IMG/VR virus record: IMGVR_UViG_3300031951_000061
Length of the DNA stretch: 64,000 nt
Direction: 5' to 3' (one strand)
From: an uncultured virus (IMG/VR IMGVR_UViG_3300031951_000061)
Lineage: Duplodnaviria; Heunggongvirae; Uroviricota; Caudoviricetes
Shown: positions 2,197-22,969 of the stretch, piece by piece
Layout of the letters: the number at the start of each line of letters is the position of its first letter
Numbering within the stretch: the stretch's first letter is position 1
Position numbers and translations under genes: made by a program
Notes under the pieces: model-generated
Database searches by the model: none
Seen by the model: the letters and a program-made list of their open reading frames with translations, nothing else
Told to the model about the DNA's origin: nothing

Positions 2197-2294
2197 TCTG
2201 CACCACCTCATCGTGGAGTCGCAGATATGTCGTGGGAAGACAGCGACATTAAAAAAATGGGATAGTCCTGAGCATGACTGTAAAAAACTGCTTA
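2197..2294 (+). ncRNA. candidate structured RNA: two hairpins plus 3' pseudoknot
   Basis: Follows TATAAT at 2189-2194. Stems TCTGC/GCAGA with CCAC/GTGG, ATGTCG/CGACAT, then TAGTC-CTGAGCAT-GACTG..AAACTGCTTA. Confidence 0.5.
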
Positions 2295-2295
2295 T

Positions 2296-2324
2296 TTGAC
2301 TTATACCCAGAAAGATGATAAGAT
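2296..2324 (+). promoter_or_regulatory. promoter for a leaderless gene at 2331
   Basis: TTGACT, N17, TAAGAT preceded by TG; ATG 7 nt after the -10. Confidence 0.6.
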
Positions 2325-2330
2325 TTATAA

Positions 2331-2522
2331 ATGAACTTAAATGAAATAATTGAAGAATCCATGAATGAAACACCTACAAACCTTACCTGGGATGAACCAG
2401 AAAATGGTGTATGGAAAGGCTGGACTTATAGCCAAACCAAAAATCGTTATTACTTTGATGATATAGGAAATGAGTCTCTTACAGACTTATGGTCGGAGGC
2501 ATTCTTAAGGCAGGCAGAATAG
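2331..2522 (+). CDS. hypothetical protein
   Basis: 63-aa ORF directly behind a promoter. Confidence 0.7.
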   Translation: MNLNEIIEESMNETPTNLTWDEPENGVWKGWTYSQTKNRYYFDDIGNESLTDLWSEAFLRQAE

Positions 2523-2525
2523 TGT

Positions 2526-2642
2526 ATGATTGAAGTACTTTGCTTTAATTGTGGACTTATGTTTACCGTGCCAAATATGACAAATTACCCTACAAAACAT
2601 TGTCCTAAATGTAATAATAAACCTTTAAGAATGGTACAATGA
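2526..2642 (+). CDS. micro zinc-ribbon protein, 38 aa (not in ORF track)
   Basis: MIEVLCFNCGLMFTVPNMTNYPTKHCPKCNNKPLRMVQ: two CxxC. Confidence 0.6.
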   Translation: MIEVLCFNCGLMFTVPNMTNYPTKHCPKCNNKPLRMVQ

Positions 2643-3346
2643 TAAATATGTTTAAAAAAAAACCAATTCTTCAATATGAATCTGCTGTAAAAATATATCC
2701 AAATATTCTTATTCCAGCAAAAAATAACATTCCAGAATGGTATAAAGAAATCCCTGTGTGGAAAAACAATGAAATTTTTACAGTTAATAAAGGTTTTAAT
2801 GTTACAGTTAAGCACTGTATGCCATTTTTGGATTCTTTAATTACTGGATACTTAGTTGTTTTACCAAATGATATTTATATTAAAAATAATAATGGGCTAC
2901 CGCTTATTACGTGGAACAAAAGTGAGTTTCCACCACTTAATAGAGAAGAGCCTTCAATATTAAAATCTGTTCCATTTGGTCATTCTCCGATAGAATTTGT
3001 TTGGCAATTTGGTGTTGCAAATGCTGTTCCAAAAAACTACAGCATGCTAATTACTCATCCACTTAATAGATATGATCTTCCGTTTACAACTTTAAGTGGT
3101 ATTGTTGATGGTGGACTGGTTATGAATCCTAAAGGAAAAATTCCATTTTTTATTAAAGAGGGATTTGAAGGTATAATTCCACAAGGAACCCCCATAGCAC
3201 AAATTATTCCATTTCGTCAAGAAAACTGGGAAAGCGTAAACACAAAAGGATTATTGGAAAAATCCGATGAACACGGATCAAAAACTTCGTCTTTAATATA
3301 TGGTTGGTATAAAAAAACATTTTGGACACGTAAAAAATATAATTAA
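2639..3346 (+). CDS. dUTPase-fold-like uncharacterised protein, paralog B (start may be 2648)
   Basis: PEWY, KHCMPFLD..TGY, YSMLITHPLNRYDLPF, SGIVD, GTPIAQIIPFR. Confidence 0.75.
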   Translation: MINMFKKKPILQYESAVKIYPNILIPAKNNIPEWYKEIPVWKNNEIFTVNKGFNVTVKHCMPFLDSLITGYLVVLPNDIYIKNNNGLPLITWNKSEFPPLNREEPSILKSVPFGHSPIEFVWQFGVANAVPKNYSMLITHPLNRYDLPFTTLSGIVDGGLVMNPKGKIPFFIKEGFEGIIPQGTPIAQIIPFRQENWESVNTKGLLEKSDEHGSKTSSLIYGWYKKTFWTRKKYN

Positions 3347-3387
3347 TTTTTTATATTTTAAATGTAACATTTTTAAAAAACAAAGTT

Positions 3388-3564
3388 TTAAAGTTTAATA
3401 TCAAAACTTTCTTCACACTTCCTGCAATATGAAGCAGGACTATTTTTTGTGTGATAGGTTGTAGATACTAAAAATACCAAACCTTCTTTATGCATATCCA
3501 CATACTTGGGATTAGCATAGCCGTAGAGTATAGGGATTAGTTTATTACCACAATGAGGGCACAT
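3388..3564 (-). CDS. small zinc-binding protein, 58 aa (not in ORF track)
   Basis: MCPHCGNKLIPILYG...SYCRKCEESFDIKL. Confidence 0.65.
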   Translation of the reverse strand: MCPHCGNKLIPILYGYANPKYVDMHKEGLVFLVSTTYHTKNSPASYCRKCEESFDIKL

Positions 3565-3565
3565 T

Positions 3566-3913
3566 TCAAGGTACCGTCCTCATTATCTTATAAGAGTATG
3601 GGTTAAGTGGGTCATAGTTATATCCACCAGTGCTTTTGTTATACCGTGCCACAAGGGCGTTATATCTATCAATAATATCAGAAATTACAGTATTCGCTTT
3701 ATCAATATCCCGCCCATGTGCATCTTGTTCTCTTATTAAATCAAGACGGCTGCTTGCAATAATGTCACTGGTATAACGAATACAATAATTAGATTGATCT
3801 AAGGTCATCTTGCGAGATTGTTTTAAATCCCCTCCCATAAAAAGCAAGACGGTTGCAAGAATTACGATCAAGGTGGATTGCACCCAGATTATGCTTTTAA
3901 GTTTAAAACTCAT
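3566..3913 (-). CDS. membrane-anchored hypothetical protein
   Basis: N-terminal hydrophobic helix followed by a helical region. Confidence 0.65.
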   Translation of the reverse strand: MSFKLKSIIWVQSTLIVILATVLLFMGGDLKQSRKMTLDQSNYCIRYTSDIIASSRLDLIREQDAHGRDIDKANTVISDIIDRYNALVARYNKSTGGYNYDPLNPYSYKIMRTVP

Positions 3914-3935
3914 ATAATTATATTATATACTATTC

Positions 3936-3965
3936 TTGACAATTAAGCAACCCAAACAGTATAAT
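3936..3965 (+). promoter_or_regulatory. sigma70-type promoter
   Basis: TTGACA, N18, TATAAT. Confidence 0.6.
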
Positions 3966-3974
3966 AGAATAACG

Positions 3975-4085
3975 ATGAATAATTTAAAAAGATATGTTAT
4001 TTGCCCAAACTGTAGTAAAGAAATTGAACTTAGATGGGGCATATTTGGTCATAATACGTTAGCAAGACACTTAAAGCAACATTAA
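3975..4085 (+). CDS. micro C2H2-type zinc finger, 36 aa (not in ORF track)
   Basis: MNNLKRYVICPNCSKEIELRWGIFGHNTLARHLKQH. Confidence 0.6.
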   Translation: MNNLKRYVICPNCSKEIELRWGIFGHNTLARHLKQH

Positions 4086-4107
4086 ACCCTTATGATACAA
4101 TATAAAT

Positions 4108-4863
4108 ATGCGTAAAAAAGTATTTATTTTTGGAGACTCTTGTACCGCCGACATAGCAAGTGCTCAAATTCCAGACTTACAGGATATATGGGATGGGAAA
4201 AGGGTTAAACATGAAGATTATAAAAAAATTATAATTGATGATTTAGATTTTACCTTCTGTTGGCAAATTGGAGCACCCGCAGCAAAAACTTATAAAGACC
4301 ATACATTTTTAGACTCAATGATAAATATTTTACCAACAAAAATTGATGAAGAGTCATTAGTATTTTTATATTATGGTGGAATGGATGTAGAGCAACAATT
4401 TTCCCCAGACAATGATGCATCAATAGTGGTTGATAATTATTTTAATTCTACACAAAACTTTTTTAAAAAAATTACACCAAATGTTTTTTATATTGAGGTC
4501 TCTGGTCTTGCAGAAGTTACTCATGGGGCATTAAAAAAATTACTACCAAAAATTCCAAATGAACAAAGAACAAAAAATTGGATGGATTTTACTACAAAAC
4601 TAAAAGAAAAATGCATAGATAATAATATTTTAGAGCCATTTAGTATTGGGTTAGAAACTTTTGGTTCATTAACTAGAATAACTGGCATAGATACACCAGA
4701 TGGATATCACTTTTATAGACATAAAAGCGAATTAATAAGGCTTGATTTAGCCAAATGGATTAAAAAAAATAAACAAAAATTTGCAAAAACTACATTAGAA
4801 ACTTGGTCATCTATGAAACATAATGGACCATATGATGAAGACTTAAGCATATATGAAATTTAA
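4108..4863 (+). CDS. SGNH/GDSL-like hydrolase
   Basis: N-terminal FIFGDS (block I) and C-terminal PDGYH (DxxH). Confidence 0.65.
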   Translation: MRKKVFIFGDSCTADIASAQIPDLQDIWDGKRVKHEDYKKIIIDDLDFTFCWQIGAPAAKTYKDHTFLDSMINILPTKIDEESLVFLYYGGMDVEQQFSPDNDASIVVDNYFNSTQNFFKKITPNVFYIEVSGLAEVTHGALKKLLPKIPNEQRTKNWMDFTTKLKEKCIDNNILEPFSIGLETFGSLTRITGIDTPDGYHFYRHKSELIRLDLAKWIKKNKQKFAKTTLETWSSMKHNGPYDEDLSIYEI

Positions 4864-4965
4864 TAATTTTTGTATTACTTGTGGCAATAAATTGGTAAAT
4901 GAAGACTGTAACTATTGTTTAAATAATTCAAATACATTAAAAATTTTTGAAAAGGAGCCAGACTA

Positions 4966-6282
4966 ATGTTACCCAATGGTCCTAGATCAAAACTTTTATT
5001 TTTATCTTTCAAAAAAAATCCACCATTGTTTTTATTAAATAATAAAAATAAATATGGAGATGTATTTTCTTTTTTATATAACAAAAAACCAATTGTTTGT
5101 TTCTTTTCTCCCAAAGCAGTAAATGAAATTACAGTAACTAAACATGAAAACTTTATAAAAGTTGGCCCAACCGTTAAATTAAAAGAACTGCTTGGTGATG
5201 GATTAATTACAAGTGAAGAGCCAATACATATGGAGCATAAAAGAATTGTATCTCCTTCATTTCATTCAAAAAATATATTAAGTTATTCGCAAGAAATGTT
5301 AGATATAACAAGAACATATACAGAAAAATGGTTAAATAATGATAAGGTAAACATAAATTTAGAGGTTATGTCTCTTACTTTTGATATTACAACAAAAGTT
5401 TTATTTAATTCAGACCTTTCCAAAGATACTGAAAAGGTTAAAAAAAATATGGACATGGTTACTCTAGGCACTACACAACTTTTACCATTTAAACTAAATA
5501 AATTAAGAAAATATAATATTCCATATTTTAACAGATATACAAAATCTACTAAAATTTTAAGGGCTATTGCAAAAGAAATTTTTGAAAATAAAGTAAAAGA
5601 TAAAAAACATAATCTAACAAAATTAGTTGAAGCATTAAACTTAGCAGTTAAAAATAAAAAAATTAAAAAACAAGATGCATATGATGAAACATTGACAATG
5701 ATTACTGCTGGCCACGAAACCACTTCAAACTCAGTAATGTGGGCATTTTCTTATTTATCTAATAGGCCAGATCTTTGGAATTTATTAAAAGAGGAATCTA
5801 AGGAAATATTTAAGTATGAAAATACTCCTGAGTTTGGACAAAAAATATTAAATTCAAAGATAGCAACCTCAATCATTAATGAGTCATTAAGGCTTTGTCC
5901 ACCAGTATGGTCAAACACCAGAAGAACAATTAAAGATGTGGAAATTGATGGATTTTTTTTAAAAAAAGGAACAACCGTATTAATAAGTTCTTATGTAACA
6001 CATAGAGATTTAAATTATTTTTATCAACCAGAAGAATTTATTCCAGAAAGATGGTATGATGGACTTGAAAAACAATTGCCAAATGGATCATACTTTCCAT
6101 TTAGTCTTGGATCACGAAGATGTATAGGTGATCAATTTGCAATAATGGAAGCAAAAATAATACTTCTTGAAACAGCAAATAAAATGAAATTATTATTAGA
6201 TTCAGGTTTTCCAAAAGCATCTGCAGAATTAACACTAAGAACTAAAAAAAATGTATTAATGAATGTTGTTAAGGAGAAATAA
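4966..6282 (+). CDS. cytochrome P450
   Basis: I-helix AGHETT, ExxR (ESLR), FIPERW, heme motif FSLGSRRCIG; AAAGGAG SD. Confidence 0.96.
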   Translation: MLPNGPRSKLLFLSFKKNPPLFLLNNKNKYGDVFSFLYNKKPIVCFFSPKAVNEITVTKHENFIKVGPTVKLKELLGDGLITSEEPIHMEHKRIVSPSFHSKNILSYSQEMLDITRTYTEKWLNNDKVNINLEVMSLTFDITTKVLFNSDLSKDTEKVKKNMDMVTLGTTQLLPFKLNKLRKYNIPYFNRYTKSTKILRAIAKEIFENKVKDKKHNLTKLVEALNLAVKNKKIKKQDAYDETLTMITAGHETTSNSVMWAFSYLSNRPDLWNLLKEESKEIFKYENTPEFGQKILNSKIATSIINESLRLCPPVWSNTRRTIKDVEIDGFFLKKGTTVLISSYVTHRDLNYFYQPEEFIPERWYDGLEKQLPNGSYFPFSLGSRRCIGDQFAIMEAKIILLETANKMKLLLDSGFPKASAELTLRTKKNVLMNVVKEK

Positions 6283-6495
6283 ATGTCTAACTGGACAGAG
6301 CAAGTAACAGATGAACAAAAAGAACAGATTTGGCATTTCATTGTAGAAACAGTTAAAGAGATACGTGAACAAATTGCTCAAGATATTGAGGGCACCAGTG
6401 ATTTATGGAAAGTAAAAGGTTTAAATAAATCCCGTCGTACAACCAAAGCATTTCAAATATCTGCTGCAATTGCCAGAGGACAGAATGAAATTTAA
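6283..6495 (+). CDS. hypothetical protein
   Basis: 70-aa ORF with AAGGAG SD, abutting the P450 stop. Confidence 0.7.
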   Translation: MSNWTEQVTDEQKEQIWHFIVETVKEIREQIAQDIEGTSDLWKVKGLNKSRRTTKAFQISAAIARGQNEI

Positions 6496-6513
6496 ATCAA
6501 ATTTGGATATTTT

Positions 6514-7296
6514 ATGCGTTATAATAAACTTTTAGTTGCAAAACACACACAATCATTAGAGCATCCATATTATTTTTGGACTGGATATTTTATTCCAATA
6601 GCAAACGAATTAAGAAAACAAAAATATGATGACACCATGTTTGTAGTTAGAGAATGTGGACCAATGACTCCTTGGTTAGAATCTTTACAAAAAATGTATC
6701 CAATTACTATAAAAAGTTCAGGTTTAATTTTAAAATATTATTTAATTGGTATGCCAAGTATTGTTTTTGATTATTGGGACAACTCTGATAAATTTGTTAA
6801 TGATGAATTTCAAGAAACCATAAAATTTTTAAAAAATATATATAATTTACCAACAAATAACAATAAAAATAATATTGGAATTTTAAATAGAAACAATAAT
6901 TTTGATTTTAAAAAAATAGAAATACCAAAAATAAAAGATATGCCAGTGCGTTCAATTAAAAATATTAACGAATTACACAGCGCTATTTCTAATTTTTATA
7001 ATTCTGAATTAATTGATACATCAGATACCAATCCAGAAGATGCTATTCAAATTTATTCTAATTTAAAAGTATTAATTGGTCAATGGGGTGCTGGATTAAC
7101 CAATATGATCTGGATGGATAAGGGAAGTTTAATTATTGAAATATGCGCTAGACCAATGGTCAGTAACGATGCTTTTGAACTTTTAGCAAATGCACTAGGC
7201 CATAAATTTATAAGAATTTTTGCACAAAACTCATGGACTGAAGATGTAAATATAGATTTAATTATGGATATATTAAAAAAAGAAAAGGTAGCATAA
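6514..7296 (+). CDS. glycosyltransferase family 61-like
   Basis: LIGQWGAGLTNMIWM..GSLIIEI matches the HGAGLTN-type motif. Confidence 0.75.
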   Translation: MRYNKLLVAKHTQSLEHPYYFWTGYFIPIANELRKQKYDDTMFVVRECGPMTPWLESLQKMYPITIKSSGLILKYYLIGMPSIVFDYWDNSDKFVNDEFQETIKFLKNIYNLPTNNNKNNIGILNRNNNFDFKKIEIPKIKDMPVRSIKNINELHSAISNFYNSELIDTSDTNPEDAIQIYSNLKVLIGQWGAGLTNMIWMDKGSLIIEICARPMVSNDAFELLANALGHKFIRIFAQNSWTEDVNIDLIMDILKKEKVA

Positions 7297-7297
7297 T

Positions 7298-7972
7298 ATG
7301 ATTGGTTTAATTCCTGCTGCTGGAGATGCAAAAAGAATGTTAGAAATTCCTAAATTTCTTTTACCAATTTTTAAAACAGAAAAAACATTAATATCTTGGC
7401 ATATAGAAAATCAATTAAAATTTTGTGAAAGAGTTGTTATAATTACAAAACCAGAAAATGCAATATTTTTTAGACATTTAGCACAAAATGAAAAAATAAG
7501 TATTTTAGTTGTTGAAACTAAAACCATGTCTGAAAGCATATTAAGAGCAGTTGAATCATTTCCATCAGACCAATATATCTTGGGTATGCCAGATACTTAC
7601 ACTGTTGGAGAAAACCCTTATGAGATTTTAATTAAAAATATAGATAATTCAAATATGTTACTTGCACTATGGGATATAAAAAAGGATCAATTTGGAACCC
7701 TTGGTCAAGTTTTACTTAGAGGTGATAACACAGTTGCTGATGTAAAAGATAAAGATATTGACTGTAAATATCCAGTTTTTTGGGGATTAATAAAGTTTGA
7801 TAATCAAATAATAAAGCATATAAAAAAAGAAGATGAGCATATTGGGTTTTCTATTATGCCAGCAGCAAATTCTGGACTAATAGTAAAAGGCTTAATTGTT
7901 GGCGGTAGATATTTTGACTGTGGAACAATGGGAAAATATGAAAAATTGATTGAATTTTTATATAAACATTAG
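7298..7972 (+). CDS. sugar-phosphate nucleotidyltransferase-like protein
   Basis: GLIPAAGDAKRM..PKFLLP; C-terminal YFDCGT. Confidence 0.75.
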   Translation: MIGLIPAAGDAKRMLEIPKFLLPIFKTEKTLISWHIENQLKFCERVVIITKPENAIFFRHLAQNEKISILVVETKTMSESILRAVESFPSDQYILGMPDTYTVGENPYEILIKNIDNSNMLLALWDIKKDQFGTLGQVLLRGDNTVADVKDKDIDCKYPVFWGLIKFDNQIIKHIKKEDEHIGFSIMPAANSGLIVKGLIVGGRYFDCGTMGKYEKLIEFLYKH

Positions 7973-8005
7973 ATAGTGTATACTGATATAAACAAAGGGG
8001 TAATC

Positions 8006-8965
8006 TTGGCTAACATAGTATTTCTTGGCAACTTTGAAGTGCCTTATAGTAGTGAGAATCATCATGCTAAGTCTTTAGAATCTCTTGGGCATACCGTTGA
8101 AAAATTGCAAGAAAAAAAAGCAGGCAGCACAGAAATATTAAATGCAGCATTAAAGTCTGATCTATTCATATGGGTACACACACATAGATGGCAAACCCCA
8201 GGATCTAGAACAATGACAGATGTATTAAAAGAATTAAAGGCTGCTGGCGTACCAACTATGACCTATCATTTAGATTTATGGTTTGGCATTGAGCGTGAAA
8301 AAGATTTAAAGGGTGATGATTTTTATACAAGCATAGGTCATTTTTTTGCTACAGATAAGTTAATGTGTGATTGGTTTAATGAAAACACACAGGTTAAAGG
8401 ACACTTCTTGCCTGCTGGTGTATATGATAAAGAGTGTTATGTCCATGAAGACTATGATCCACATAACTTTGAAAACGATATTATCTTTGTTGGTAGTAAG
8501 GGTTATCATCCTGAACATAAATACCGTCCACAACTAATAGATTTCTTACGAAAAACATACGGCAAAAGATTTCTACATGTTGGTGGCGATGGAGACACTG
8601 GCACAGTTCGTGGAGATGCGCTTAATCGTATATATGCAAAAAGCAAAGTAGCAATAGGTGATAGTCTTAACATAAACTTTAACTATCCATACTACACTAG
8701 CGATAGGTTGTTTGAAAGCACTGGTCGTGGTGGTTTTACTATCTACCCTCGTATTAAAGGACTTGAAGAATATTTTAAAGATGAGATTGAAATTGTATTT
8801 TATGAACACGGTAATCTTGAAGATCTAAAAAATAAAATAGATAGATATTTATTAGACGGAGTATCAAGAGAATCAATAAGACTTAATGGACATGAAAGAA
8901 CTAAAAAAGAACATACATATGTTCATAGATGGGCAACTATATTAAAAGAATTAAACATTAGTTAG
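8006..8965 (+). CDS. GT-B glycosyltransferase, CgeB-like
   Basis: DIIFVGS, RPQLIDFL, SDRLFESTGRGGF, HTYVHR; TTG start after AAGGGG. Confidence 0.8.
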   Translation: MANIVFLGNFEVPYSSENHHAKSLESLGHTVEKLQEKKAGSTEILNAALKSDLFIWVHTHRWQTPGSRTMTDVLKELKAAGVPTMTYHLDLWFGIEREKDLKGDDFYTSIGHFFATDKLMCDWFNENTQVKGHFLPAGVYDKECYVHEDYDPHNFENDIIFVGSKGYHPEHKYRPQLIDFLRKTYGKRFLHVGGDGDTGTVRGDALNRIYAKSKVAIGDSLNINFNYPYYTSDRLFESTGRGGFTIYPRIKGLEEYFKDEIEIVFYEHGNLEDLKNKIDRYLLDGVSRESIRLNGHERTKKEHTYVHRWATILKELNIS

Positions 8966-9601: not shown

Positions 9602-9607
9602 TTAACC

Positions 9608-9637: not shown

Positions 9638-9662
9638 ATTATAAGAGTAAATGGGGAGAACC

Positions 9663-15264: not shown

Positions 15265-15272
15265 TATTCCTC

Positions 15273-15431: not shown

Positions 15432-15432
15432 G

Positions 15433-15792: not shown

Positions 15793-15797
15793 ACTAA

Positions 15798-16286: not shown

Positions 16287-16411
16287 TAATTTTCTTCTAT
16301 ATCAAAAATGTTTAATTCAGATATTTTTTTTAAATTGGATGCTACCCAAAGTGTCATGGCAGTTAACAAAGATAAGATTATTAGTATTAATATTTTTGTT
16401 TTCTTTTTCAT
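16286..16411 (-). CDS. small membrane protein, 41 aa (not in ORF track)
   Basis: MKKKTKILILIILSLLTAMTLWVAS..; stop/start overlaps on both sides. Confidence 0.55.
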   Translation of the reverse strand: MKKKTKILILIILSLLTAMTLWVASNLKKISELNIFDIEEN

Positions 16412-16539
16412 ATTGTTATCATTGTTCCACATCTTATACAGGCGTTATAACTTTTCCCAGTATATGGGCATGCTCCAGCAGTAATTAATACATGATCTTT
16501 AATTTTACATATAATAATTTTAATTAATTGTTTAATCAT
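16408..16539 (-). CDS. small Cys/His protein, 43 aa (not in ORF track)
   Basis: ICKIKDH..AGACPYTGKSYNACIRCG; overlaps both neighbours. Confidence 0.6.
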   Translation of the reverse strand: MIKQLIKIIICKIKDHVLITAGACPYTGKSYNACIRCGTMITI

Positions 16540-16766
16540 TTAATTGCCTCTCTAGTTATCAAAACAATTGCTCCACAATCTTCTAGTGCTTTTTTAAGTT
16601 TTACAACATATTGAAGTGCTGATATTTTATCATCGTGCCCCATATGTAAAAACTTTTTTTCATCTAATTTTACCGTAAGAAAATGATCGTTGTCAATAAT
16701 CTGCACTCCAAAACCTTTTGGCGCAGGTATAGAATGAACGGCATATCTCATTAAATCTGTATACAT
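16536..16766 (-). CDS. hypothetical protein
   Basis: 76-aa ORF, translationally coupled. Confidence 0.7.
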   Translation of the reverse strand: MYTDLMRYAVHSIPAPKGFGVQIIDNDHFLTVKLDEKKFLHMGHDDKISALQYVVKLKKALEDCGAIVLITREAIK

Positions 16767-17491
16767 TATTTATTAAACCAATTATCATTATCAGAACAAA
16801 CATATTTAATATATTGATTTTTAAACAAACTATACTTTGTATAATATTTAGTTTCTGCAATATTTATAAGCCATTCTTTTACATCTTGTTTAATTTTAAG
16901 ATTTTTAAAATTTTCCATATCTTCTTTACAAGCACTTGCAACATTTTTTGTAATATCTGTACGAATAATATTTTTAAATAAATGAAAAAAATCAGGAAAA
17001 GCATGAATTGCTGGGCCATTATCAGTATAAAGAAAAATACCATTTGGTTTTAAAATTCTTTTTACCTCATAAAAAAACAATGGAAAATTTTGATAGCAAT
17101 GAGAAGATTCTACACTGACGACTATATCAAAATAATTATCTTCGTAGTCTAAACTTTCTGCATTTGAAACTTTAAAATTAATATTTTTATTATTTTTATT
17201 ACAATACTCTATATTTTTTTTATTTAAATCACAAGCATAAATTTCTGTAAAATTAAAGTATTTATTTAAACCTTTTATTCCACCACCTCTACCGCAACCA
17301 ACCTCAAGTATGTTTTTATTTGTAAATTTTAAATTATCAAATAAAGATAAATAAAGACTAAGTTGATTTTTAAAATCTTGATCTTCTTTTTTTATAAAAT
17401 TATATGATGGGTAGTACCCATGATTCATAAAATCAACATTTGTTGATTCAAAAAATGTGTTTAAATCACTATAAAAGTTGTCGTTAGCCAT
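16766..17491 (-). CDS. class I SAM-dependent methyltransferase
   Basis: FMNHGY, ILEVGCGRGGG, FDIVVSVESSHCY, RILKPNG. Confidence 0.9.
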   Translation of the reverse strand: MANDNFYSDLNTFFESTNVDFMNHGYYPSYNFIKKEDQDFKNQLSLYLSLFDNLKFTNKNILEVGCGRGGGIKGLNKYFNFTEIYACDLNKKNIEYCNKNNKNINFKVSNAESLDYEDNYFDIVVSVESSHCYQNFPLFFYEVKRILKPNGIFLYTDNGPAIHAFPDFFHLFKNIIRTDITKNVASACKEDMENFKNLKIKQDVKEWLINIAETKYYTKYSLFKNQYIKYVCSDNDNWFNK

Positions 17492-17495
17492 AATT

Positions 17496-17777
17496 TTATT
17501 CCATTGTTAATGACTGCCAAGTTTCAGACCAGTCTTTTTTAGTTTTATGTTTATTAAATTCTTTTGAAATTTCTCCACCTTCTAAGTATACGCCACCCCA
17601 AACACCCCACTCTTTTCCAGAAATTCCGTTGGCAAAACATATTTTTTTTACTGGACATTGTTTGCAAAGTGCGTCAACATTATACCTAGAATTTTCTTCG
17701 TCTTCATATTTATCAAAATAAATATTTGTATCAAGGCCTAAACATACAGCCTGATCTTTCCATAAATGTTGCTTCAT
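17496..17777 (-). CDS. whiB: WhiB-family Fe-S transcription factor
   Basis: W...AVC, CKQCPVKKIC, WGVWGG. Confidence 0.9.
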   Translation of the reverse strand: MKQHLWKDQAVCLGLDTNIYFDKYEDEENSRYNVDALCKQCPVKKICFANGISGKEWGVWGGVYLEGGEISKEFNKHKTKKDWSETWQSLTME

Positions 17778-18481
17778 TATTTAAATTTCTTTTCTTGTCT
17801 TATAAATTTTTTATAAAATCCAAAAAAATATTTATTTTTTTCCATACTTTTATTTTGTGCTTCTTTAATTAAATCTACCCTTAATTCAGAATCCCAATTT
17901 TCTCTTTTAAATGGTATTATTTGTGCTATAGGAGTTCCTTGTGGAATTAAACCAGTAAAATCTTTTTTTATCCAAAATGAAAATTGTCCAGGCCATGGAA
18001 CACCTTCGTCAACAATTCCACTACTTGAAATAAAGGGTAAATCATTTCTATTAAGTGGATGAGTAATTAGCATGCTATATCCTTTTGGGAGAAGTATTCC
18101 AAAATTTCCTCTCCAAGCATAATGCACTTCACTGCAACCATCTGGAGTTGGTAGTGTACTTAAAACTTTTCCATTATCCCTTACTGCTATTGGATCTGGT
18201 CCAACGTTCCAATTAAAAAAATGTATATTATTTTGTTTTGACACGTAAATATCTTGATGTGTAGATAGCATATATCCAGTAGTTAAAGAATCTAAAAATG
18301 GCATACAGCCTTTAAAAGATATTTGGGGTGGTATAAAATCTTCTTTATTTTCATTTTTTAAAGTTAATTCTTGTTCTTTCCACCAAATTGGTAAAAAATT
18401 TTTTGCTGGTTTTGGCTTTTCTAAATTAAAACTATTGTTTAAATCTATTGATATTGGAACAAACAATATTTTATTTTTCAT
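17777..18481 (-). CDS. dUTPase-fold-like uncharacterised protein, paralog C
   Basis: KGCMPFLD..TGY, PKGYSMLITHPLNRNDLPF, SGIVD, GTPIAQIIPFKR; GGAG SD before MKNKILF. Confidence 0.75.
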   Translation of the reverse strand: MKNKILFVPISIDLNNSFNLEKPKPAKNFLPIWWKEQELTLKNENKEDFIPPQISFKGCMPFLDSLTTGYMLSTHQDIYVSKQNNIHFFNWNVGPDPIAVRDNGKVLSTLPTPDGCSEVHYAWRGNFGILLPKGYSMLITHPLNRNDLPFISSSGIVDEGVPWPGQFSFWIKKDFTGLIPQGTPIAQIIPFKRENWDSELRVDLIKEAQNKSMEKNKYFFGFYKKFIRQEKKFK

Positions 18482-18692
18482 TTTTATCTCCATATTTATT
18501 TGGTATATTCCAACCAATACGGGTAGGTTTATAAATTCTATGCAAATACCACTTATCTTTTACTCTAATTCCTAAAGGAGAGGTTCTTGCTATATCAGAT
18601 TCTTTTAAATCAACGACATCCCAACCACTCCAAAATAAGTTTTTGTTTTTATTTACAATTTTTTCCATTGTATTTAAACTTTTAATTATCAT
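18471..18692 (-). CDS. hypothetical protein
   Basis: MIIKSLNTMEKIV..WSGWDVV; AGGAG SD. Confidence 0.7.
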   Translation of the reverse strand: MIIKSLNTMEKIVNKNKNLFWSGWDVVDLKESDIARTSPLGIRVKDKWYLHRIYKPTRIGWNIPNKYGDKNEK

Positions 18693-18699
18693 TTTTCTC

Positions 18700-19050
18700 C
18701 TAATATCTAAAAAGACCGACGTCAATATTATTTGCTTCTGCAGTTAAAACCAATTTTGATTTTAGTTCTTTTGGACGACTTAAAAAAACAAAGTAATTAA
18801 TTTGATTTATATTTTCATTTAACCATGCAGGAGCAGCATTATAGAATTTAATTTTTTTGCCTCTTGCTTTCATCCCACGTTCTGACAAATTGCAAAATTC
18901 TGAAACAAAATTATTAATTTTTAATGGTCCAGCAGAATAAATAATGAAGTCATTATCTCCATTTTTCATTCCAGACAAAGCAACGCTCATAGCACGTAAA
19001 AATACGCTATAATCATTAAACTCTTTTGTTCCCTGCACTGCCACTATCAT
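18700..19050 (-). CDS. SLOG/YspA-like protein
   Basis: MIVAVQGTKEFNDY N-terminus. Confidence 0.5.
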   Translation of the reverse strand: MIVAVQGTKEFNDYSVFLRAMSVALSGMKNGDNDFIIYSAGPLKINNFVSEFCNLSERGMKARGKKIKFYNAAPAWLNENINQINYFVFLSRPKELKSKLVLTAEANNIDVGLFRY

Positions 19051-19444
19051 TTGGTCTTACCCCTTGCTTTAAGTCATCAAGTATTGATAACATTTTGTCT
19101 AACTCTGTTTTTGACATATTTTCAAAATTTAATTGTTTTATTGTGTTTTCATCTACTCTGCCATTAATAGCATCAGCAGTATAAAAAATGTTATCCAATA
19201 TCCAATATGCCTTGCCTTCGGTTATTACTACCTTTAACATATTTTTTTGAATATGTTTTTCAGATTGCGTAATAAGTCTAGGCTTATCAAATTTTTGTTT
19301 TGGAACAACATCTTTAATCATTTCATATATGTCACTTTGTTTATATTTAATTTTTTTTAAAAATGTTATTCTTTTTTTATTTGATATCTTAATTATAGAC
19401 CAAGAGACAATCAATGTCAAGCCTATAACTAATAAATATTCCAT
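19016..19444 (-). CDS. membrane-anchored hypothetical protein
   Basis: N-terminal TM; KAYWILDNIFY. Confidence 0.7.
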   Translation of the reverse strand: MEYLLVIGLTLIVSWSIIKISNKKRITFLKKIKYKQSDIYEMIKDVVPKQKFDKPRLITQSEKHIQKNMLKVVITEGKAYWILDNIFYTADAINGRVDENTIKQLNFENMSKTELDKMLSILDDLKQGVRPNDSGSAGNKRV

Positions 19445-19445
19445 A

Positions 19446-19607
19446 CTATTTAGATTTTTTTGTTGATTCTTTTGTTAAACCTAAAATCATAGAATTAAGT
19501 TTATTAATCTCAAGTTGTAACTTTAATGAATCTAACTCTGTATCAGATAGTTTTTGTTTATAAAATCCTATTAATTGAATTAACTCATTTTTTTCTAAAT
19601 TATCCAC
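19446..19607 (-). CDS. small coiled-coil protein, 53 aa (not in ORF track)
   Basis: GTG start after AGGGGG; MDNLEKNELIQLIGFYKQKLSD.. Confidence 0.55.
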   Translation of the reverse strand: MDNLEKNELIQLIGFYKQKLSDTELDSLKLQLEINKLNSMILGLTKESTKKSK

Positions 19608-19617
19608 ATTTCCCCCT

Positions 19618-19986
19618 TTATTTTTTTAGATCAAATGCAGTTCCCTGCCAAACCTTTTCTACTTGTTTCTTTTCTCTTTCAACAATAGCACGACTCCATG
19701 CAAATCCTGCATCTCCACCCCAAGCATCCCACATAATTCTTCCATTAGATGGGAACTCTGGACCATCGTAAAAACCTTTTCCCTTTTTATCTACTTCGTG
19801 ACGGGAAAAGAAAGAGAACATTCTTTTAACAGTACTAAGAGACATTGCTGATCCATTTACAATATCTGTTGCTCTACCCCAACCTACTGGAGTCCCAGCA
19901 CCTGTTGCTTTACCGTCTTCTTTCCATTTTAAAGCACGACGAGCAGCAGCCTTCATGCCAGCATTTGGTGTATATGTATCAGCCAT
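19618..19986 (-). CDS. phage protein with a module typical of head-morphogenesis proteins
   Basis: GAGTPVGWGRA, RMFSFFSRHE, GRIMWDAWGGDAG. Confidence 0.6.
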   Translation of the reverse strand: MADTYTPNAGMKAAARRALKWKEDGKATGAGTPVGWGRATDIVNGSAMSLSTVKRMFSFFSRHEVDKKGKGFYDGPEFPSNGRIMWDAWGGDAGFAWSRAIVEREKKQVEKVWQGTAFDLKK

Positions 19987-20179
19987 CTTGTCTTACCTTA
20001 TTTTTTTCATATGACTTACCCCAAAAAAATGATCCAATCATTAATAAACCTATTACTAGTGAGTGCCAAAAATAAAACATGCTCATTTTTTACCGTCTTT
20101 CTTTTTTTGTTTTTCAATACGTTTTTCTTTAAGAGTCATCTTTGGCTCTTTCTTTTTATTGGTATTACCCTTTTGTTCT

Positions 20180-20347
20180 TTATTGGCCACTTGCTACCAC
20201 CCTTATTTTATTTTTTCCTGGTCTATATGGACCAAGATCTGCTTTTATTCTACCGTCTTTTCTTAAACGGACTATTCTTCCATCTTTAATTTGTAATGGA
20301 TTAAAACCATGATCTTTAAAATATGAACCTGAAGATTTTTTAGACAT
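20180..20347 (-). CDS. small basic protein, 55 aa (not in ORF track)
   Basis: MSKKSSGSYFKDHGFNPLQIKDGRIVRLRKDGRIKADLG; TAATG overlap. Confidence 0.6.
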   Translation of the reverse strand: MSKKSSGSYFKDHGFNPLQIKDGRIVRLRKDGRIKADLGPYRPGKNKIRVVASGQ

Positions 20348-21408
20348 TATTTTTTAAACGGATTTAAATCAAATATAGATCCGCCCCAACTAGTCATACC
20401 TTTACGAGCCATATTGTTCCAATCTTCTGGCAACATATCTGTTGCATTTAATTCTTTTGCACGACGAACAATATGTGCTTTTGCTTTTTCATAATCTTTT
20501 GCACGACCGACAGAACGAATTGCATTCATAAGGTCTGCACGATTTGAGATTGGGAATGATCCATCAGGCATTGCATTTCCAGATTCTGCCATTCTTTCAC
20601 GGGACGCTGTAGAATAATCACGTTTTTCTGATTTATAAGTTCCGCCACGACGTTTATATTCTTGAACTACCCAAGAATTAGCAACTGCAGATGGATACAC
20701 ATCAAATTTATCTTTTGCTTCTTGAATAATACGTGCATAAAGTCTAGCATTTGCTGGCTCACCTTTACGTGGCTTAATAAATTCATCATAGTTTGGTTTT
20801 TTTGCTTTATCAATTTCATTTGACTTACTTACTGGAACACAATTAGGAACCATACGTCCGTCTTTTTCTTTCATACCACGTTGCTCATATCCAACCCAAC
20901 ATGCTTTTGTCATGTTGTCCCATTTATCTTCATCCTCATTATCAGACTCGTATGAATCATCTTCTTTATCATTATTGTCCATAGATTTATCCATACCAAC
21001 ATTAGATTCAAGAGATGGCATTGCCATAACTTCAGATGCTTTTTTACCAATAAAATATTCTGTTTCTTCTAATCCGCCTTCTTCCATTTCAAAAAGTTGA
21101 ATTAATACTGCAGGTTCTGTAGCGGATGCTGCAAGTGCATATTCTGATCCAGGAAAACCTAGCATTCCTTCTGTCATTACATGAACAACACGACCAACAT
21201 AAACTTCGTCGTCATTTGGTGCCATTACCATGTCGCCTTCTTTAACCATGCTTTTACCTATGTTCCCCTCTGATCTATTAATTGCATAAATTTGTGCTGC
21301 TGCCTGTCCTCGTGTTTTGTGACAGCCCATAACTTCGTTGGTACCCTCTTTTAAAGCAGGGTAGCCAGAACAACCGTATGAACCTTTAGCACCTACACGA
21401 TATGGCAT
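20347..21408 (-). CDS. multi-module phage protein, putative head-associated
   Basis: Short modules CWVGYEQRGMK..VPNCVP, YPSAVANSWVVQEYKRRGG, AMPDGSFPISN; acidic linkers. Confidence 0.6.
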   Translation of the reverse strand: MPYRVGAKGSYGCSGYPALKEGTNEVMGCHKTRGQAAAQIYAINRSEGNIGKSMVKEGDMVMAPNDDEVYVGRVVHVMTEGMLGFPGSEYALAASATEPAVLIQLFEMEEGGLEETEYFIGKKASEVMAMPSLESNVGMDKSMDNNDKEDDSYESDNEDEDKWDNMTKACWVGYEQRGMKEKDGRMVPNCVPVSKSNEIDKAKKPNYDEFIKPRKGEPANARLYARIIQEAKDKFDVYPSAVANSWVVQEYKRRGGTYKSEKRDYSTASRERMAESGNAMPDGSFPISNRADLMNAIRSVGRAKDYEKAKAHIVRRAKELNATDMLPEDWNNMARKGMTSWGGSIFDLNPFKK

Positions 21409-21427
21409 TTTACTATTATATCAGGGT

Positions 21428-21814
21428 TTAGTTGTTTGGATGCTTGCCAGACAGCCTTTTAAGTTCTTCAATAGACCATTTTTCACGCTTGGTTAACTTA
21501 GACATTTCTGTTTTATCAAATGATTTTAATGCTAATGTAACTACTGGATCTTTAGATAAAAAGTCTATGTCTACATACCCTCTTTCCCACAAAGACAATA
21601 TCTCAGCGTTTACAGCATTCATGTGGTCATCATATAATTCTGGCATTAACTGTTTAATTTTAGGAGTAAATGAATATAGCAATGACCCATCTTCAGAGTC
21701 AATACCAGCAACCTCTAGACCACCTTCAAGAATTAATTTTTCAATCATTTCATTTTCATCTGAAGTCATGCTTTTCCCATCTGGATTAAATATTCTCTTG
21801 AATAGTTTTTTCAT
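21428..21814 (-). CDS. hypothetical protein
   Basis: 128-aa ORF; LEVAGIDSEDGSLLY. Confidence 0.7.
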   Translation of the reverse strand: MKKLFKRIFNPDGKSMTSDENEMIEKLILEGGLEVAGIDSEDGSLLYSFTPKIKQLMPELYDDHMNAVNAEILSLWERGYVDIDFLSKDPVVTLALKSFDKTEMSKLTKREKWSIEELKRLSGKHPNN

Positions 21815-22064
21815 AATTAATAAAATTTTCCAATTCTTCCCTTGTTTTTACACCAGTGGTACGATTTATTTCCTTACCTTCTTTTAATAAAACAAATGTT
21901 GGAACAGATTTAATTTCAAAATTTTTAGCCATTTCATTTTCTATATCAACATCAACCATTTGAAAAATTCCAGGAACGTAGTCCCTGTTTAATTCTTTAA
22001 CGATGGGTTTTACTTTTTTGCACGGCTGACACCAATCTGCAGTAAAGTAAAGTATTGTTTTCAT
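21786..22064 (-). CDS. thioredoxin
   Basis: FTADWCQPCK, IKSVPTF. Confidence 0.92.
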   Translation of the reverse strand: MKTILYFTADWCQPCKKVKPIVKELNRDYVPGIFQMVDVDIENEMAKNFEIKSVPTFVLLKEGKEINRTTGVKTREELENFINYEKTIQENI

Positions 22065-22468
22065 TTTCCAGACTTTGCTCTAGCCTTTTTAAGAACTTCA
22101 AAATCCTTAACTTTAGTTTCTCCAAGATATCCCCAAGCATATCCATCATTAATCATCTTATCATTTAATGATTCTGTATCTCCATTAACATATAACCAGC
22201 CCAAAATGCGACCATACTTTTCTGATGAGTTCATCTTTTCAGTTTTAATAACAACAGATTTTGCATCTTTAAGATGTTTCTTTAAATACTCTTTAGATTC
22301 AAGACCAAGTGCTTTTTCAACTTTATCTGTTGTGCGTGACTCTGGTGTATCAATACCCGCTAAACGAACACGGGAAGAAAACAAAATATCAAACCCTAAA
22401 TCAATAATTACATCAATGGTATCTCCATCAACCACATTTTTAACTTCTTTTACAAAATATTGATACAT
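22061..22468 (-). CDS. thermonuclease (SNase-like)
   Basis: VVDGDTID, RLAGIDTPE, EKYGRILG. Confidence 0.9.
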   Translation of the reverse strand: MYQYFVKEVKNVVDGDTIDVIIDLGFDILFSSRVRLAGIDTPESRTTDKVEKALGLESKEYLKKHLKDAKSVVIKTEKMNSSEKYGRILGWLYVNGDTESLNDKMINDGYAWGYLGETKVKDFEVLKKARAKSGK

Positions 22469-22725
22469 TATATTGCTCCAATTGCTCTATTTTCTATTAG
22501 TTTTTCACGTTCATCAACAACCTCTAACATAAAAGCCATCATTTTATTATGTGACTCAGGGTCATTCATTATTTTTTCATAGTGGTGTCCACAAAACATT
22601 AACTCTCCAGAAACACCTTTTACTTTAATTAATGCTTGTGCTAGACACTTATCACAACGATCATTAGCATTTAGTATATACTTTTTTGAAACTACACTGG
22701 GATGTTCTTTAACAATGCTAGTCAT
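22468..22725 (-). CDS. small zinc-finger protein
   Basis: DRCDKC..FCGHH; leaderless start 7 nt after TATAAT. Confidence 0.7.
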   Translation of the reverse strand: MTSIVKEHPSVVSKKYILNANDRCDKCLAQALIKVKGVSGELMFCGHHYEKIMNDPESHNKMMAFMLEVVDEREKLIENRAIGAI

Positions 22726-22740
22726 AGTGTTATTATACAT

Positions 22741-22914
22741 CTACTTTCTGTTGTCAGTTGAATAAAATCCGCTACCGTTAAAAATTGCAGCAGGAGCACT
22801 CCAAAGCCTTTGCATTGATTGATTACAACAGACTGGATATTTATCTTCATTAATTGTTTTTTCAAATTCAACTTGTCCAGAACAAACAGAACACTTATAG
22901 TCATATCTTGGCAT
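22741..22914 (-). CDS. FmdB-family zinc-ribbon protein, 57 aa (not in ORF track)
   Basis: MPRYDYKCSVC..PVCC..FNGSGFYSTD; AAGGAG SD. Confidence 0.85.
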   Translation of the reverse strand: MPRYDYKCSVCSGQVEFEKTINEDKYPVCCNQSMQRLWSAPAAIFNGSGFYSTDNRK

Positions 22915-22942
22915 TTAGTTACTCCTTTCTTTTAATAAGTAG

Positions 22943-22969
22943 TGAGCAGTTTATGGACATGCTCAGGTC
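22943..22969 (-). ncRNA. small pseudoknot motif, copy 2, in the 5' UTR of the FmdB gene
   Basis: GAC-CTGAGCAT-GTC-CATAAAC-TGCTCA, just downstream of TATAAT (22978-22983). Confidence 0.55.

Follow-up and report, generated by a model that had tools for sequence, protein, structure and literature searches.

A recurrent small RNA pseudoknot between phage genes with a possible role as a directional roadblock

Two intergenic copies and their surroundings

The window analysed here is a 64-kb stretch of DNA from an uncultured Caudoviricetes virus, and two copies of a small motif lie between its genes. Copy 1 (2262..2294, + strand) is located between an ORF at 1932-2144 and a 63-aa ORF at 2331..2522 (+ strand) that has no family match. 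Copy 2 (22969..22943, - strand) is flanked upstream by an Hsp20 gene (22993..23424, - strand; phrog_432; Pfam HSP20, 67.5 bits), whose stop codon ends 25 nt ahead of the CC of the copy, and downstream by a gene for a 57-aa zinc-ribbon protein of the FmdB type (22741..22914, - strand), whose start codon comes 28 nt after the last P2 base, A22943. The zinc-ribbon protein matches Pfam Zn_ribbon_8 with 26.5 bits (E 6.3e-6), which is under the cut-off of 34.4.

Both copies were read from the sequence as a hairpin (P1) whose loop pairs with a downstream strand (P2). On the + strand, copy 1 has P1 strands at 2262-2267 and 2276-2281 (A2262-T2281, T2263.G2280, A2264-T2279, G2265-C2278, T2266-A2277, C2267-G2276) and P2 strands at 2269-2274 and 2289-2294 (T2269-A2294, G2270.T2293, A2271-T2292, G2272-C2291, C2273-G2290, A2274-T2289), with L1 at C2268, L2 at T2275 and an A-rich L3 at 2282-2288. 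On the - strand, the P1 strands of copy 2 are 22969-22967 and 22958-22956 (G22969-C22956, A22968-T22957, C22967-G22958) and those of P2 are 22965-22960 and 22948-22943 (T22965-A22943, G22964-C22944, A22963-T22945, G22962-C22946, C22961-G22947, A22960-T22948), while L1 is C22966, L2 is T22959 and L3 spans 22955-22949. A preliminary description of this DNA had reported two intergenic copies with compensatory changes. The letters it quoted are present at both places, P1 is indeed swapped from GTC/GAC in copy 1 to GAC/GTC in copy 2, and a G.U in P2 of the first copy is a G-C in the second.

A covariance model (R1) built solely from other phages' copies was run on the 64-kb window. Copy 1 (30.1 bits, E 1.8e-6) and copy 2 (46.3 bits, E 7.9e-11) were its sole matches, the next best reaching at most 10.5 bits, and a shuffled window would hold the full pattern 0.14 times by expectation. 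Chance is excluded by this low expectation together with R1 scores far above the rest of the 64 kb. The constituent 8-mers are not rare by themselves, since CTGAGCAT occurs 3 times versus 1.83 expected and AAACTGCT 6 times versus 3.36; the significance rests on their combination and on the pairing, not on the 8-mers alone.

Copy 1 stands at the end of a conserved leader RNA (2198..2261, + strand). In 7 other phage loci this leader is again found ahead of the knot, flanked by an Hsp20 gene and by a gene of the FmdB or SNase type. The leader contains two hairpins on the + strand. The first (2198-2224; CTGC-A-CCAC ... GTGG-AGTC-GCAG) is kept in 8/8 sequences including the window, with one compensatory pair (RNAalifold), and the second lies at 2227-2249. 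A -10-like hexamer, TATAAT, can be read 3 nt before the leader (2189..2194, + strand), and the 7 relatives have a TATAAT 6 nt ahead of theirs; the consensus promoter scan did not list the hexamer of the window because it has no -35 match. Two further promoter-like sites were found as consensus matches only: TTGACT-17-TAAGAT (2296-2324, + strand) between copy 1 and the ATG of the 63-aa ORF, and TTGCAA-17-TATAAT (22978..23006, - strand; 10/12 consensus matches), whose end lies 8 nt ahead of P1 in copy 2. The earlier proposals that copy 2 starts a transcript and that copy 1 ends a candidate ncRNA are therefore plausible, the former given the site just before P1 and the latter given a leader that ends in the knot in all 8 sequences.

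An RNA-level pseudoknot with two covarying stems

The fold is a real H-type pseudoknot, as had been claimed, with both stems covarying in hundreds of relatives. For P1, 132 unique phage instances were counted. The first and second pairs beyond the fixed C-G closing pair were Watson-Crick in 132/132 and 131/132 of them, the third was paired in 110/132 when G.U is counted, and all four pair types were found. Mean stem length was 3.33, compared with 0.85 when partners were shuffled. In alignment A1, the P1 covariation score was 0.358 versus 0.093, with 192 cells changed on both sides, and 0 of 500 shuffles reached 0.358. P2 was tested by mutating the loop in the search pattern while leaving the partner position free. 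A loop change of G>A was accompanied by partner U in 70 of 87 matches, A>G by partner C in 80 of 83 and, in the third scan, another G>A by partner U in 36 of 39; this third scan also had 50 matches with almost no P1 pairing, and in those both the partner base and the gap length are scattered. Changes on both sides were seen for four P2 pairs in alignment A3 (score 0.622 versus 0.195, which 0/500 shuffles reach).

The closing pair is C-G in 140/140 (A1) and 148/148 (A3), although the search patterns fixed this pair; it is also retained in nearly all full-length rows found by the model, which is biased toward C-G. Many core positions of the alignments were preset in the same way, so the "invariance" of the core is partly by construction. 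Conservation of C8 and of AAA is strong and exceeds pairing needs; AAA is invariant in A3, although partly pattern-fixed. One copy with a flipped G-C closing pair was spotted by eye upstream of L016.

The preliminary description had named a DNA operator as the alternative should homologs lack covariation in P1 and P2; both stems covary, and a reading at the level of RNA is supported. G.U pairs are present in P1 and P2 (132 instances; alignment A3), with 14 G.U against 5 A/C at P1 pair 3 among the pair types listed. The pseudoknot is co-oriented with genes, equal occurrence on both strands relative to genes having been checked and found not to be the case. Its linker varies from 4 to 12 nt (132 instances), and no fixed -10 element was found at any offset in 390 instances, where TAnnnT never rose above 7%. 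A sigma-70 promoter or DNA operator was rejected on these grounds, there being no fixed hexamers at fixed spacing. Any DNA-level role, whether as promoter, operator or single-strand DNA hairpin, appears scarcely credible: it would suit the position of copy 2 just after a promoter-like site, but complementarity between variable sequences is unreadable by a double-strand DNA binder, and wobble pairs, co-orientation with genes and a ribosome-sized gap after stop codons all speak for RNA.

Distribution and placement

The pseudoknot represents a very large family, located between genes of many unrelated phages and also on some bacterial contigs. Among cultured phages it is present in Synechococcus phage S-CRM01, Methylophilales phage Melnitz-3 and Phage C48C1. 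Knot-bearing phages infect cyanobacteria and methylotrophs, and copies also lie on contigs assigned to Firmicutes, Saccharibacteria and possibly methanogens. Up to 9 matches per 37 kb occur, ahead of unrelated genes, and the flanking genes are very diverse. RNase J was found in 4/5 genomes whose contigs carry the pseudoknot; it was not found in a Polynucleobacter MAG holding a copy, a genome that is incomplete and in which absence is not proven.

The gap from the upstream stop codon has a sharp lower edge, with 16 cases at 8 nt and 3 below among 106 instances with an upstream ORF. A gap of 8 nt leaves 5 nt before P1, roughly the point at which, by ribosome geometry, a terminating ribosome ceases to unwind RNA. 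Downstream, an SD-preceded start codon lies 10-45 nt from the pseudoknot in 51/132 instances, often at 20-30 nt, and a same-strand tRNA begins 3-12 nt away in 10/207. In S-CRM01 and C48C1 the knot abuts the 3' end of a tRNA, and a gene begins 25-30 nt further on (tRNA-Tyr and 25 nt in S-CRM01). The stretch after the pseudoknot is G-poor and U-rich; its first 10 nt contain 5-15% G and are less folded than upstream sequence. Mean MFE is -2.1 downstream versus -3.6 kcal/mol upstream (373 instances). Of 77 bacterial-contig instances, 6 have a terminator-like hairpin within 6-18 nt of the pseudoknot on its downstream side.

Ribozymes occur in the same kind of surroundings. Twister-like matches were found in 3/51 knot-bearing contigs and pistol in 1/51, and both also lie beside the pseudoknot on bacterial contigs. 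On one contig a twister-like ribozyme begins 3 nt after the pseudoknot, and on one a genuine pistol is located about 580 nt upstream, separate from it. No match to an Rfam ribozyme (pistol, twister or others) overlaps the pseudoknot itself.

Relation to known RNAs and proposed function

PreQ1-I riboswitches are very small H-type pseudoknots with an A-rich 3' tail. The phage knot has both features, but its P2 is longer, it has no expression platform, and no queuosine genes are among the downstream genes seen. As the preliminary description held, it is not preQ1-I despite the similar plan: a scan of both copies against Rfam 15, a check proposed in that description, gave no family at E<=10, preQ1 included. 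Two ribozymes can also be compared. The 5' domain of pistol likewise has a short P1 hairpin whose loop pseudoknots with downstream sequence in phage spacers; however, the phage knot is without the P2, P3 and cleavage site of pistol (PMC4604425). The theta (minimal HDV-like) ribozyme is similarly a small pseudoknotted RNA a few bases from phage tRNA genes, but it has another fold and roughly twice the size, its self-cleavage is proven, and it is sited at tRNA 3' ends only (PMC10879173).

In plan the core equals the coremin xrRNA-C of eukaryotic RNA viruses, especially its Watson-Crick variant, and much of the sequence is common to both. Coremin is described from BNYVV, cucumoviruses and other RNA viruses, with an hp1 of 3-5 bp whose pairs can be swapped, a C-G closing pair whose flipping abolishes function, and a spacer, GUUAAACUAC, of which the AAACU part is essential (PMC6546385; PMC10520033). 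Xrn1 halts at coremin one base ahead of hp1, scanning ribosomes are blocked by it as well, and it stimulates frameshifting (PMC6546385; PMC10520033; PMC10321173). In the phage knot, too, pairing and not sequence counts in the short P1 (all pair types occur), a C-G pair, preset in the search patterns, closes the loop, the first loop base is a pyrimidine (C here) and the second-last is A. The last loop base, U of CUGAGCAU, fits the coremin consensus YGAD / YGNNAD, and the phage loop of 8 nt is within the up to 8 nt that coremin tolerates (PMC6546385; PMC10520033). The UUAAACU linker lies at the same distance from hp1, with the consensus Gnnn-UU-AAACU against G-ACG-UU-AAACU in BNYVV (PMC6546385), and coremin, too, occurs in intergenic regions, besides UTRs.

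There are also differences. Loop position 2 must be G in YGAD / YGNNAD and is U in the phage knot; C as last loop base is not tolerated in coremin (PMC10520033), whereas phage variants with it exist; the essential A20 is replaced by G27, paired with C13; the loop-spacer contact of coremin is non-canonical; and its hosts are eukaryotes with Xrn1. The Watson-Crick variant, xrRNA-WCC, is closer in its pairing. Its loop bases pair with bases right after AAA across a one-base L1 bridge, and function was lost and then restored by compensatory changes (Dilweg et al. 2023, RNA Biol, PMC10321173). The short hp1, the one-base L1 and antiparallel Watson-Crick loop pairing after AAA are shared, and covariation of P2 here parallels the compensatory rescue there. 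By contrast, S2 has 3 bp there and 5-6 bp in the phage knot, the loop 4 nt against 8, and the L1 base is G against C; xrRNA-WCC has come to light in a screen and in two RNA viruses, as opposed to DNA phages. Both coremin and xrRNA-WCC need an hp2 after the spacer for Xrn1 resistance, which the phage knot is without. A hairpin of at least 4 bp 0-3 nt after the motif was found in 34% of 373 instances versus 38% in the upstream control, and one at the coremin hp2 position in only 12%. The preliminary description had named membership of an already characterised family as a refuting condition; this applies only insofar as eukaryotic RNA viruses have a relative, and Rfam 15 contains no matching family. 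A full-text literature search linking coremin with phages found nothing relevant.

Of the explanations considered, the most likely, at about even odds, is that the pseudoknot is a directional roadblock that shields the message behind it from 5'-to-3' nucleases or ribosomes. Structure, RNA-level features, placement, the likeness to coremin and RNase J in 4/5 genomes speak for it. Each copy would be transcribed within a phage message and fold into a compact H-type pseudoknot. As sequence and covariation show, P1 has 3-6 bp and is closed by C-G, and a single C (L1) crosses to a P2 of 5-6 bp, which joins the hairpin loop UGAGCA to the strand just past the conserved UUAAAC linker; the A-rich linker would lie along P1. 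RNase J where the host has it, 5'-end-scanning RNase E, or sliding and scanning ribosomes are candidates for stalling at the 5' edge of the knot. What lies behind the knot, either an mRNA leader whose start codon is about 20-30 nt away or the precursor of a tRNA, would be protected and kept apart from upstream events. In the window, copy 2 would sit as a cap at the 5' end of the zinc-ribbon and SNase message, and copy 1 would close the conserved leader RNA, 97 nt in all. Several observations speak against such a roadblock. Three defining coremin features fail (loop U for G, G for A20, no hp2), and to our knowledge bacteria are without Xrn1. RNase P would sever the copies that lie 3-12 nt before tRNAs, and where a terminator-like hairpin follows, as in 6/77 bacterial copies, little downstream is left to shield.

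The copies just before tRNAs and the one 3 nt before a twister-like ribozyme fit equally well with protection of an upstream 3' end, an explanation that we regard as unlikely overall. In that case the knot would be part of the upstream RNA and, once the transcript had been cut a short way downstream, would keep 3'-to-5' exonucleases out. RNase P acting on a following tRNA, a following ribozyme, or RNase E attacking the U-rich linker could make this cut, and a short unusable tail would remain. The MALAT1 triple helix together with a tRNA-like cut provides a parallel, and the knot lies as near to the upstream stop codon as the ribosome allows; the terminators and the G-poor, U-rich stretch after it are also consistent. 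However, the S-CRM01 and C48C1 knots right after tRNA 3' ends would hinder 3' trimming, the knots of the Hsp20-to-FmdB leaders stand 49-103 nt from the upstream gene but precede the next start codon by about 20 nt, and the nearest characterised relative blocks from the 5' side (PMC10520033). A processing site, at which polycistronic phage RNA is cut by the knot's own chemistry or by a universal RNase, is quite improbable. A pseudoknot with many highly conserved bases, present on contigs assigned to several phyla, does correspond to the criteria for sophisticated RNAs in Weinberg et al. 2017, ribozymes occupy the same kind of phage spacers, and theta ribozymes lie within 5 nt of phage tRNAs (PMC10879173). 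Yet the element has only about 27 nt and matches no Rfam ribozyme model, a second cutter directly beside tRNAs or a twister would be redundant, and there is no CCA-like tail to suit an RNase P mimic, ACCA being present in only 12/373.

The preliminary description had offered ligand binding, protein binding or nuclease blocking as functions. Of these, nuclease blocking is now the best supported, because of the resemblance to coremin xrRNA, and no dedicated protein partner was found. An operator read by a phage or host protein that recognises the conserved loop and linker, and so regulates translation or decay of flanking genes, is very doubtful. The conservation beyond pairing needs (C8, AAA), the recurrence of an FmdB-type zinc-ribbon gene downstream and the precedent of the T4 gene 32 pseudoknot operator favour it, but that gene is present in only 4/9 near-complete knot-bearing genomes, flanking genes are very diverse, and a lineage-specific partner is argued against by a knot that spans phages and contigs of many phyla. 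A small ligand-sensing riboswitch of the preQ1-I type is highly improbable; the shared plan and A-rich tail make a pocket between P1 and P2 conceivable, but a 6-bp P2 should form without ligand, the SD is outside the fold, roughly 10-20 nt downstream, and the lack of an expression platform, the diversity of downstream genes and the tRNA genes or terminators after some copies make ligand sensing unlikely, as does the number of matches per genome segment.

Eukaryotic RNA viruses have been thoroughly studied for directional nuclease roadblocks, and we know of none described for bacteria or their phages. The coremin-type minimal fold serves RNA viruses of plants, fungi and insects against Xrn1. 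It is possible, though somewhat short of probable, that the phage knot is the first prokaryotic class of exoribonuclease- or translocase-blocking RNA (xrRNA), a coremin-like fold used as a general punctuation mark by DNA phages. By halting RNase J, scanning RNase E or ribosomes, such a mark would give stable 5' ends to messages and tRNA precursors, and the likeness would reflect either very ancient shared ancestry or striking convergence upon a single solution of about 27 nt. The roadblock idea is testable now because the motif is present in the cultured phages S-CRM01, Melnitz-3 and C48C1. If it is true, a host-independent shielding module of about 27 nt would explain how phages stabilise and separate parts of long transcripts, would offer a very compact part for synthetic operons, and would let 5'-to-3' RNA decay and RNase E scanning be approached directly in many phyla.

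Two copies of the pseudoknot and their surroundings

The preliminary description had reported a small H-type pseudoknot present twice in the window, with compensatory changes and a preQ1-I-like architecture. The letters it quoted for both copies are present at the positions it gave, and its placement of both between genes is borne out by gene positions and family matches. Copy 1 (2262-2294, + strand) has a P1 stem of six pairs, one of them a wobble, running from A2262-T2281 to C2267-G2276. A single base, C2268, forms loop L1, and P2 extends from T2269-A2294 to A2274-T2289, with G2270.T2293 among its pairs. The linker (2282-2288) is seven bases long and A-rich. Copy 2 (22969-22943, - strand) shares the loop of copy 1; its P1 is three pairs long and its P2 consists entirely of Watson-Crick pairs. 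A covariance model trained solely on the copies of other phages scored copy 2 at 46.3 bits (E 7.9e-11) and copy 1 at 30.1 bits (E 1.8e-6). No third site was found in the 64-kb window, where the next model match reached only 10.5 bits.

The window is a piece of a tailed-phage genome (32.9% G+C) encoding a DNA polymerase, a DnaB-type helicase, a UvsX-type recombinase, a terminase and a tape-measure protein. Both copies also occur in the nearest available record, G001, together with a third, in which the 3′ strand of P2 stops 4 nt ahead of a tRNA-Asp gene. BLAST searches of a phage collection with both copy regions were negative in near mode and in distant mode alike.

Copy 2 lies 25 nt downstream of the Hsp20 stop codon, and a TTGCAA-17-TATAAT match ends 8 nt upstream of it. 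The start codon of a gene for a 57-aa zinc-ribbon protein follows 28 nt past the last P2 base; after this gene come genes for a DUF7455 protein and an SNase-type nuclease. Two adjoining tRNA genes (24235-24382, -; 71.4 and 61.4 bits) share the strand of the Hsp20 gene and lie upstream of it.

Copy 1 forms the 3′ end of a 97-nt leader (2198-2294). The same leader was found in seven other phage loci, each time with an Hsp20 gene on one side, a gene of FmdB or SNase type on the other, and TATAAT directly upstream; in the window it is relocated to the front of an unrelated 63-aa ORF. The leader exists in two forms (window 2198-2261, +; L047, L065, L068, L081, L085, L091 and L096), with TATAAT upstream in every case. 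The first hairpin, CTGC-A-CCNC...GNGG-AGTC-GCAG, is common to both, and the second is one of two alternatives, both of which are carried by L085. Copy 1 is flanked by two of the three paralogues of phrog_7084, a family of unknown function (1037-1759, +; 2639-3346, +; 25305-26093, -). Directly 3′ of it is a promoter-like TTGACT-17-TAAGAT with TG (2296-2324, +), ending 6 nt before an ATG at 2331, so that the message would be leaderless or nearly so.

Covariation in both stems across a large family

Viral contigs were scanned for exact matches to two conserved blocks separated by a free gap of 3-12 nt, which yielded at least 134 instances at a minimum of 128 loci. Among the matches listed (132 unique instances), counting away from the C-G closing pair, the first P1 pair is Watson-Crick in all 132 and the second in 131, and the third is paired in 110, including 14 G.U pairs. 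All four pair types are seen in P1 in this set, and its mean length is 3.33, compared with 0.85 when the 5′ and 3′ flanks are taken from different instances. In an alignment of 140 sequences, three P1 pairs change on both sides (192 cells), and none of 500 shuffles reached the P1 covariation score.

The same scan of prokaryote contigs returned 124 instances. P1 is paired in 80 of them, with a gap mostly of 5 nt. The other 44, which serve as an internal control, have an unpaired P1 and random gap lengths; by eye they lie in GC-rich sequence and match chance expectation. The P1-paired contigs are labelled Saccharibacteria, Anaerolineae, Clostridia, Selenomonadaceae, Weissella, Polynucleobacter, Segatella and Methanobrevibacter, among others. 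Many of the contigs bearing the knot come from MAGs and may be phage DNA. Two loci on Methanobrevibacter-binned contigs (L161, L196) hold well-formed knots, which could reflect archaeal viruses using the knot or misbinning. One Selenomonadaceae MAG contig (L190-L192) carries five knots in about 4 kb; terminator-like hairpins follow several of these, and 3 nt past one of them begins a twister-like ribozyme that scores 40.6 bits, short of the cut-off of 67.2.

Since the first scan pattern fixed P2, this stem was probed separately with a mutated loop and a free partner position, counting only matches with a P1 of at least three pairs. When loop G2 was changed to A, the compensating U was present in 70 of 87 matches (C in 7, A in 9, G in 1). 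A3 to G was accompanied by C in 80 of 83 (U in the other 3), and G4 to A by U in 36 of 39 (C in 2, G in 1). A further 50 matches from the G4-to-A scan had almost no P1 pairing, and in these the partners were scattered and the gap lengths evenly spread. In a mixed alignment comprising 148 distinct sequences, two-sided changes affect four P2 pairs. The P2 covariation score in this alignment is 0.622 against 0.195 when shuffled, and 0/500 shuffles reach it; P1 is 100% paired there by construction, as the alignment was built from P1-filtered pattern sets. The outermost pair, U9-A31, is not reliable, being unpaired in 46/148. Covariation, the absence of which from relatives would have spoken against an RNA, is thus present in both stems.

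A model search of 50 contigs picked as motif-bearing gave 1-9 matches per contig. The variants recovered included C5 to U, with G or A as partner, and a P2 made wholly of wobble pairs. A second class of knot, at L287, L300, L309, L311, L315 and L318, has AAAAGGCUCA as its 3′ strand instead of AAACUGCUCA. In this class, a U-A pair and an A.G mismatch would replace a U.C mismatch and an A-U pair at the stem junction. Three loci (L016, L111, L211) have a diverged extra knot about 20 nt upstream of the canonical one, in which the closing pair is flipped to G-C and a G-C pair of P2 has become U-A; tRNA-like sequence follows the canonical knot at these loci.

Variant knots were also detected by the covariance model in three of five phage records picked by Hsp20 similarity, and two Pelagibacter phages gave no match. 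Synechococcus phage S-CRM01 has two, one directly 3′ of tRNA-Tyr and 25 nt before gene g172, the other directly after a stretch (L696, record about 130250-130333) that is tRNA-like by eye. The latter shows acceptor-stem and T-arm features and is unannotated in the record. In phage C48C1 the knot follows tRNA-Tyr about 30 nt before a gene, and in Methylophilales phage Melnitz-3 it is separated by 8 nt from a stop codon upstream and by 16 nt from the start codon that comes next.

Position relative to genes and evidence for an RNA-level element

The evidence places the knot at the level of RNA, not DNA. G.U pairs occur in both P1 and P2, linker lengths among the matches listed range between 4 and 12 nt, and the knot shares the coding strand of its two flanks in 101/204 cases and is on the opposite strand in 20/204. 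A promoter was rejected, as no -10-like hexamer was found at any fixed offset in 390 instances. Two metatranscriptome runs contain small shares of the region, as assembled contigs without starts, ends or strand.

Among the 132 matches listed, the distance from the stop codon to the conserved CC has a sharp lower limit, being exactly 8 nt in 16 cases and shorter in 3, with a tail beyond; the upstream ORF was required to have at least 60 open codons, and 26 of the 132 lacked one. The 8-nt spacing leaves five unpaired bases ahead of P1, which is about the minimum for a structure to escape unwinding by a terminating ribosome. This spacing had suggested a readthrough or frameshift signal, a candidate set aside on the immediate in-frame stops seen by eye in several of the cases listed. 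An SD-preceded start codon lies 10-45 nt downstream, mostly at 20-30 nt, in 51 of the 132 matches listed. A same-strand tRNA begins 3-12 nt downstream of the knot in 10/207, and one tRNA lies upstream. Of 77 copies on bacterial contigs, 6 have a terminator-like hairpin after them. The ten bases 3′ of the knot contain little G and much U and are less folded than the upstream sequence, and the genes on either side are diverse.

Relation to known RNAs and possible functions

The comparison with Rfam that the preliminary description had called for gave only chance-level matches to both copies in E-value scans. The best, freshwater-2, reached 16.6 bits where the cut-off is 49.9 and owed its score to the SD and ATG. 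At the gathering threshold, the whole window yielded two tRNAs and nothing more, and no family matching the knot was found in Rfam 15. Topical literature searches found no description of the motif in phages and no link between coremin and phages, and searches with its sequence strings returned primers and unrelated matches only. Recent genome-language-model preprints do not mention it in the passages checked. The motif may be listed under a number among the 8,495 IMG/VR candidate RNAs of Fremin et al. 2023.

The closest plan is that of coremin (xrRNA-C), an Xrn1-resistant RNA of eukaryotic RNA viruses. As described in two reports (PMC6546385, PMC10520033), coremin has a 3-5 bp hairpin (hp1) in which pairs may be exchanged, except that the C-G closing pair does not tolerate flipping, and a YGAD or YGNNAD loop that still functions at up to eight bases. 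Its spacer, GUUAAACUAC, has an essential AAACU part, and a second hairpin (hp2) is required. It halts Xrn1 one base ahead of hp1 and also blocks scanning ribosomes. In a Watson-Crick variant, according to PMC10321173, loop bases 6-8 pair with spacer bases 20-18 via a one-base L1, and frameshifting is promoted too. The phage knot likewise presents, in order, the closing G, three stem bases, UU, AAAC, U and the pairing strand. However, it has U for the loop G and G for A20, its S2 (the loop-spacer stem) is 5-6 bp, and it lacks hp2. Because the plan is shared but these four differences exist, we class the knot as a probable functional counterpart of coremin-type roadblocks rather than as an established member of that family.

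Several other functions were considered. Protection of 3′ ends, or a more general insulating role, is kept alive because some copies are followed by a terminator, tRNA or twister and because RNase J, present in four of five genomes holding the knot, was not seen in the fifth. Self-cleavage is a weaker explanation: ribozymes occupy the same spacers (twister-like on 3/51 contigs, pistol on 1/51) and both kinds adjoin the knot on contigs of bacteria, but the knot itself is matched by none of the ribozyme models. Equally graded as weaker are ligand sensing, for which the knot has no platform, and binding of a dedicated protein partner, none of which was found. The FmdB zinc-ribbon protein was rejected as an obligatory partner, as it is encoded in only 4/9 near-complete genomes. 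A TnpB/IscB guide RNA, an idea prompted by a paper on RAGATH-18, was dismissed since the ORFs upstream are ordinary phage genes of many kinds, and an RNase P or tRNA-acceptor mimic with a CCA tail was discarded with ACCA downstream in only 12/373.

We infer that the knot is a roadblock. Such a role would fit the short, fixed spacing between knot and start codon, the tRNA-knot-gene order and the promoter-proximal site of copy 2.
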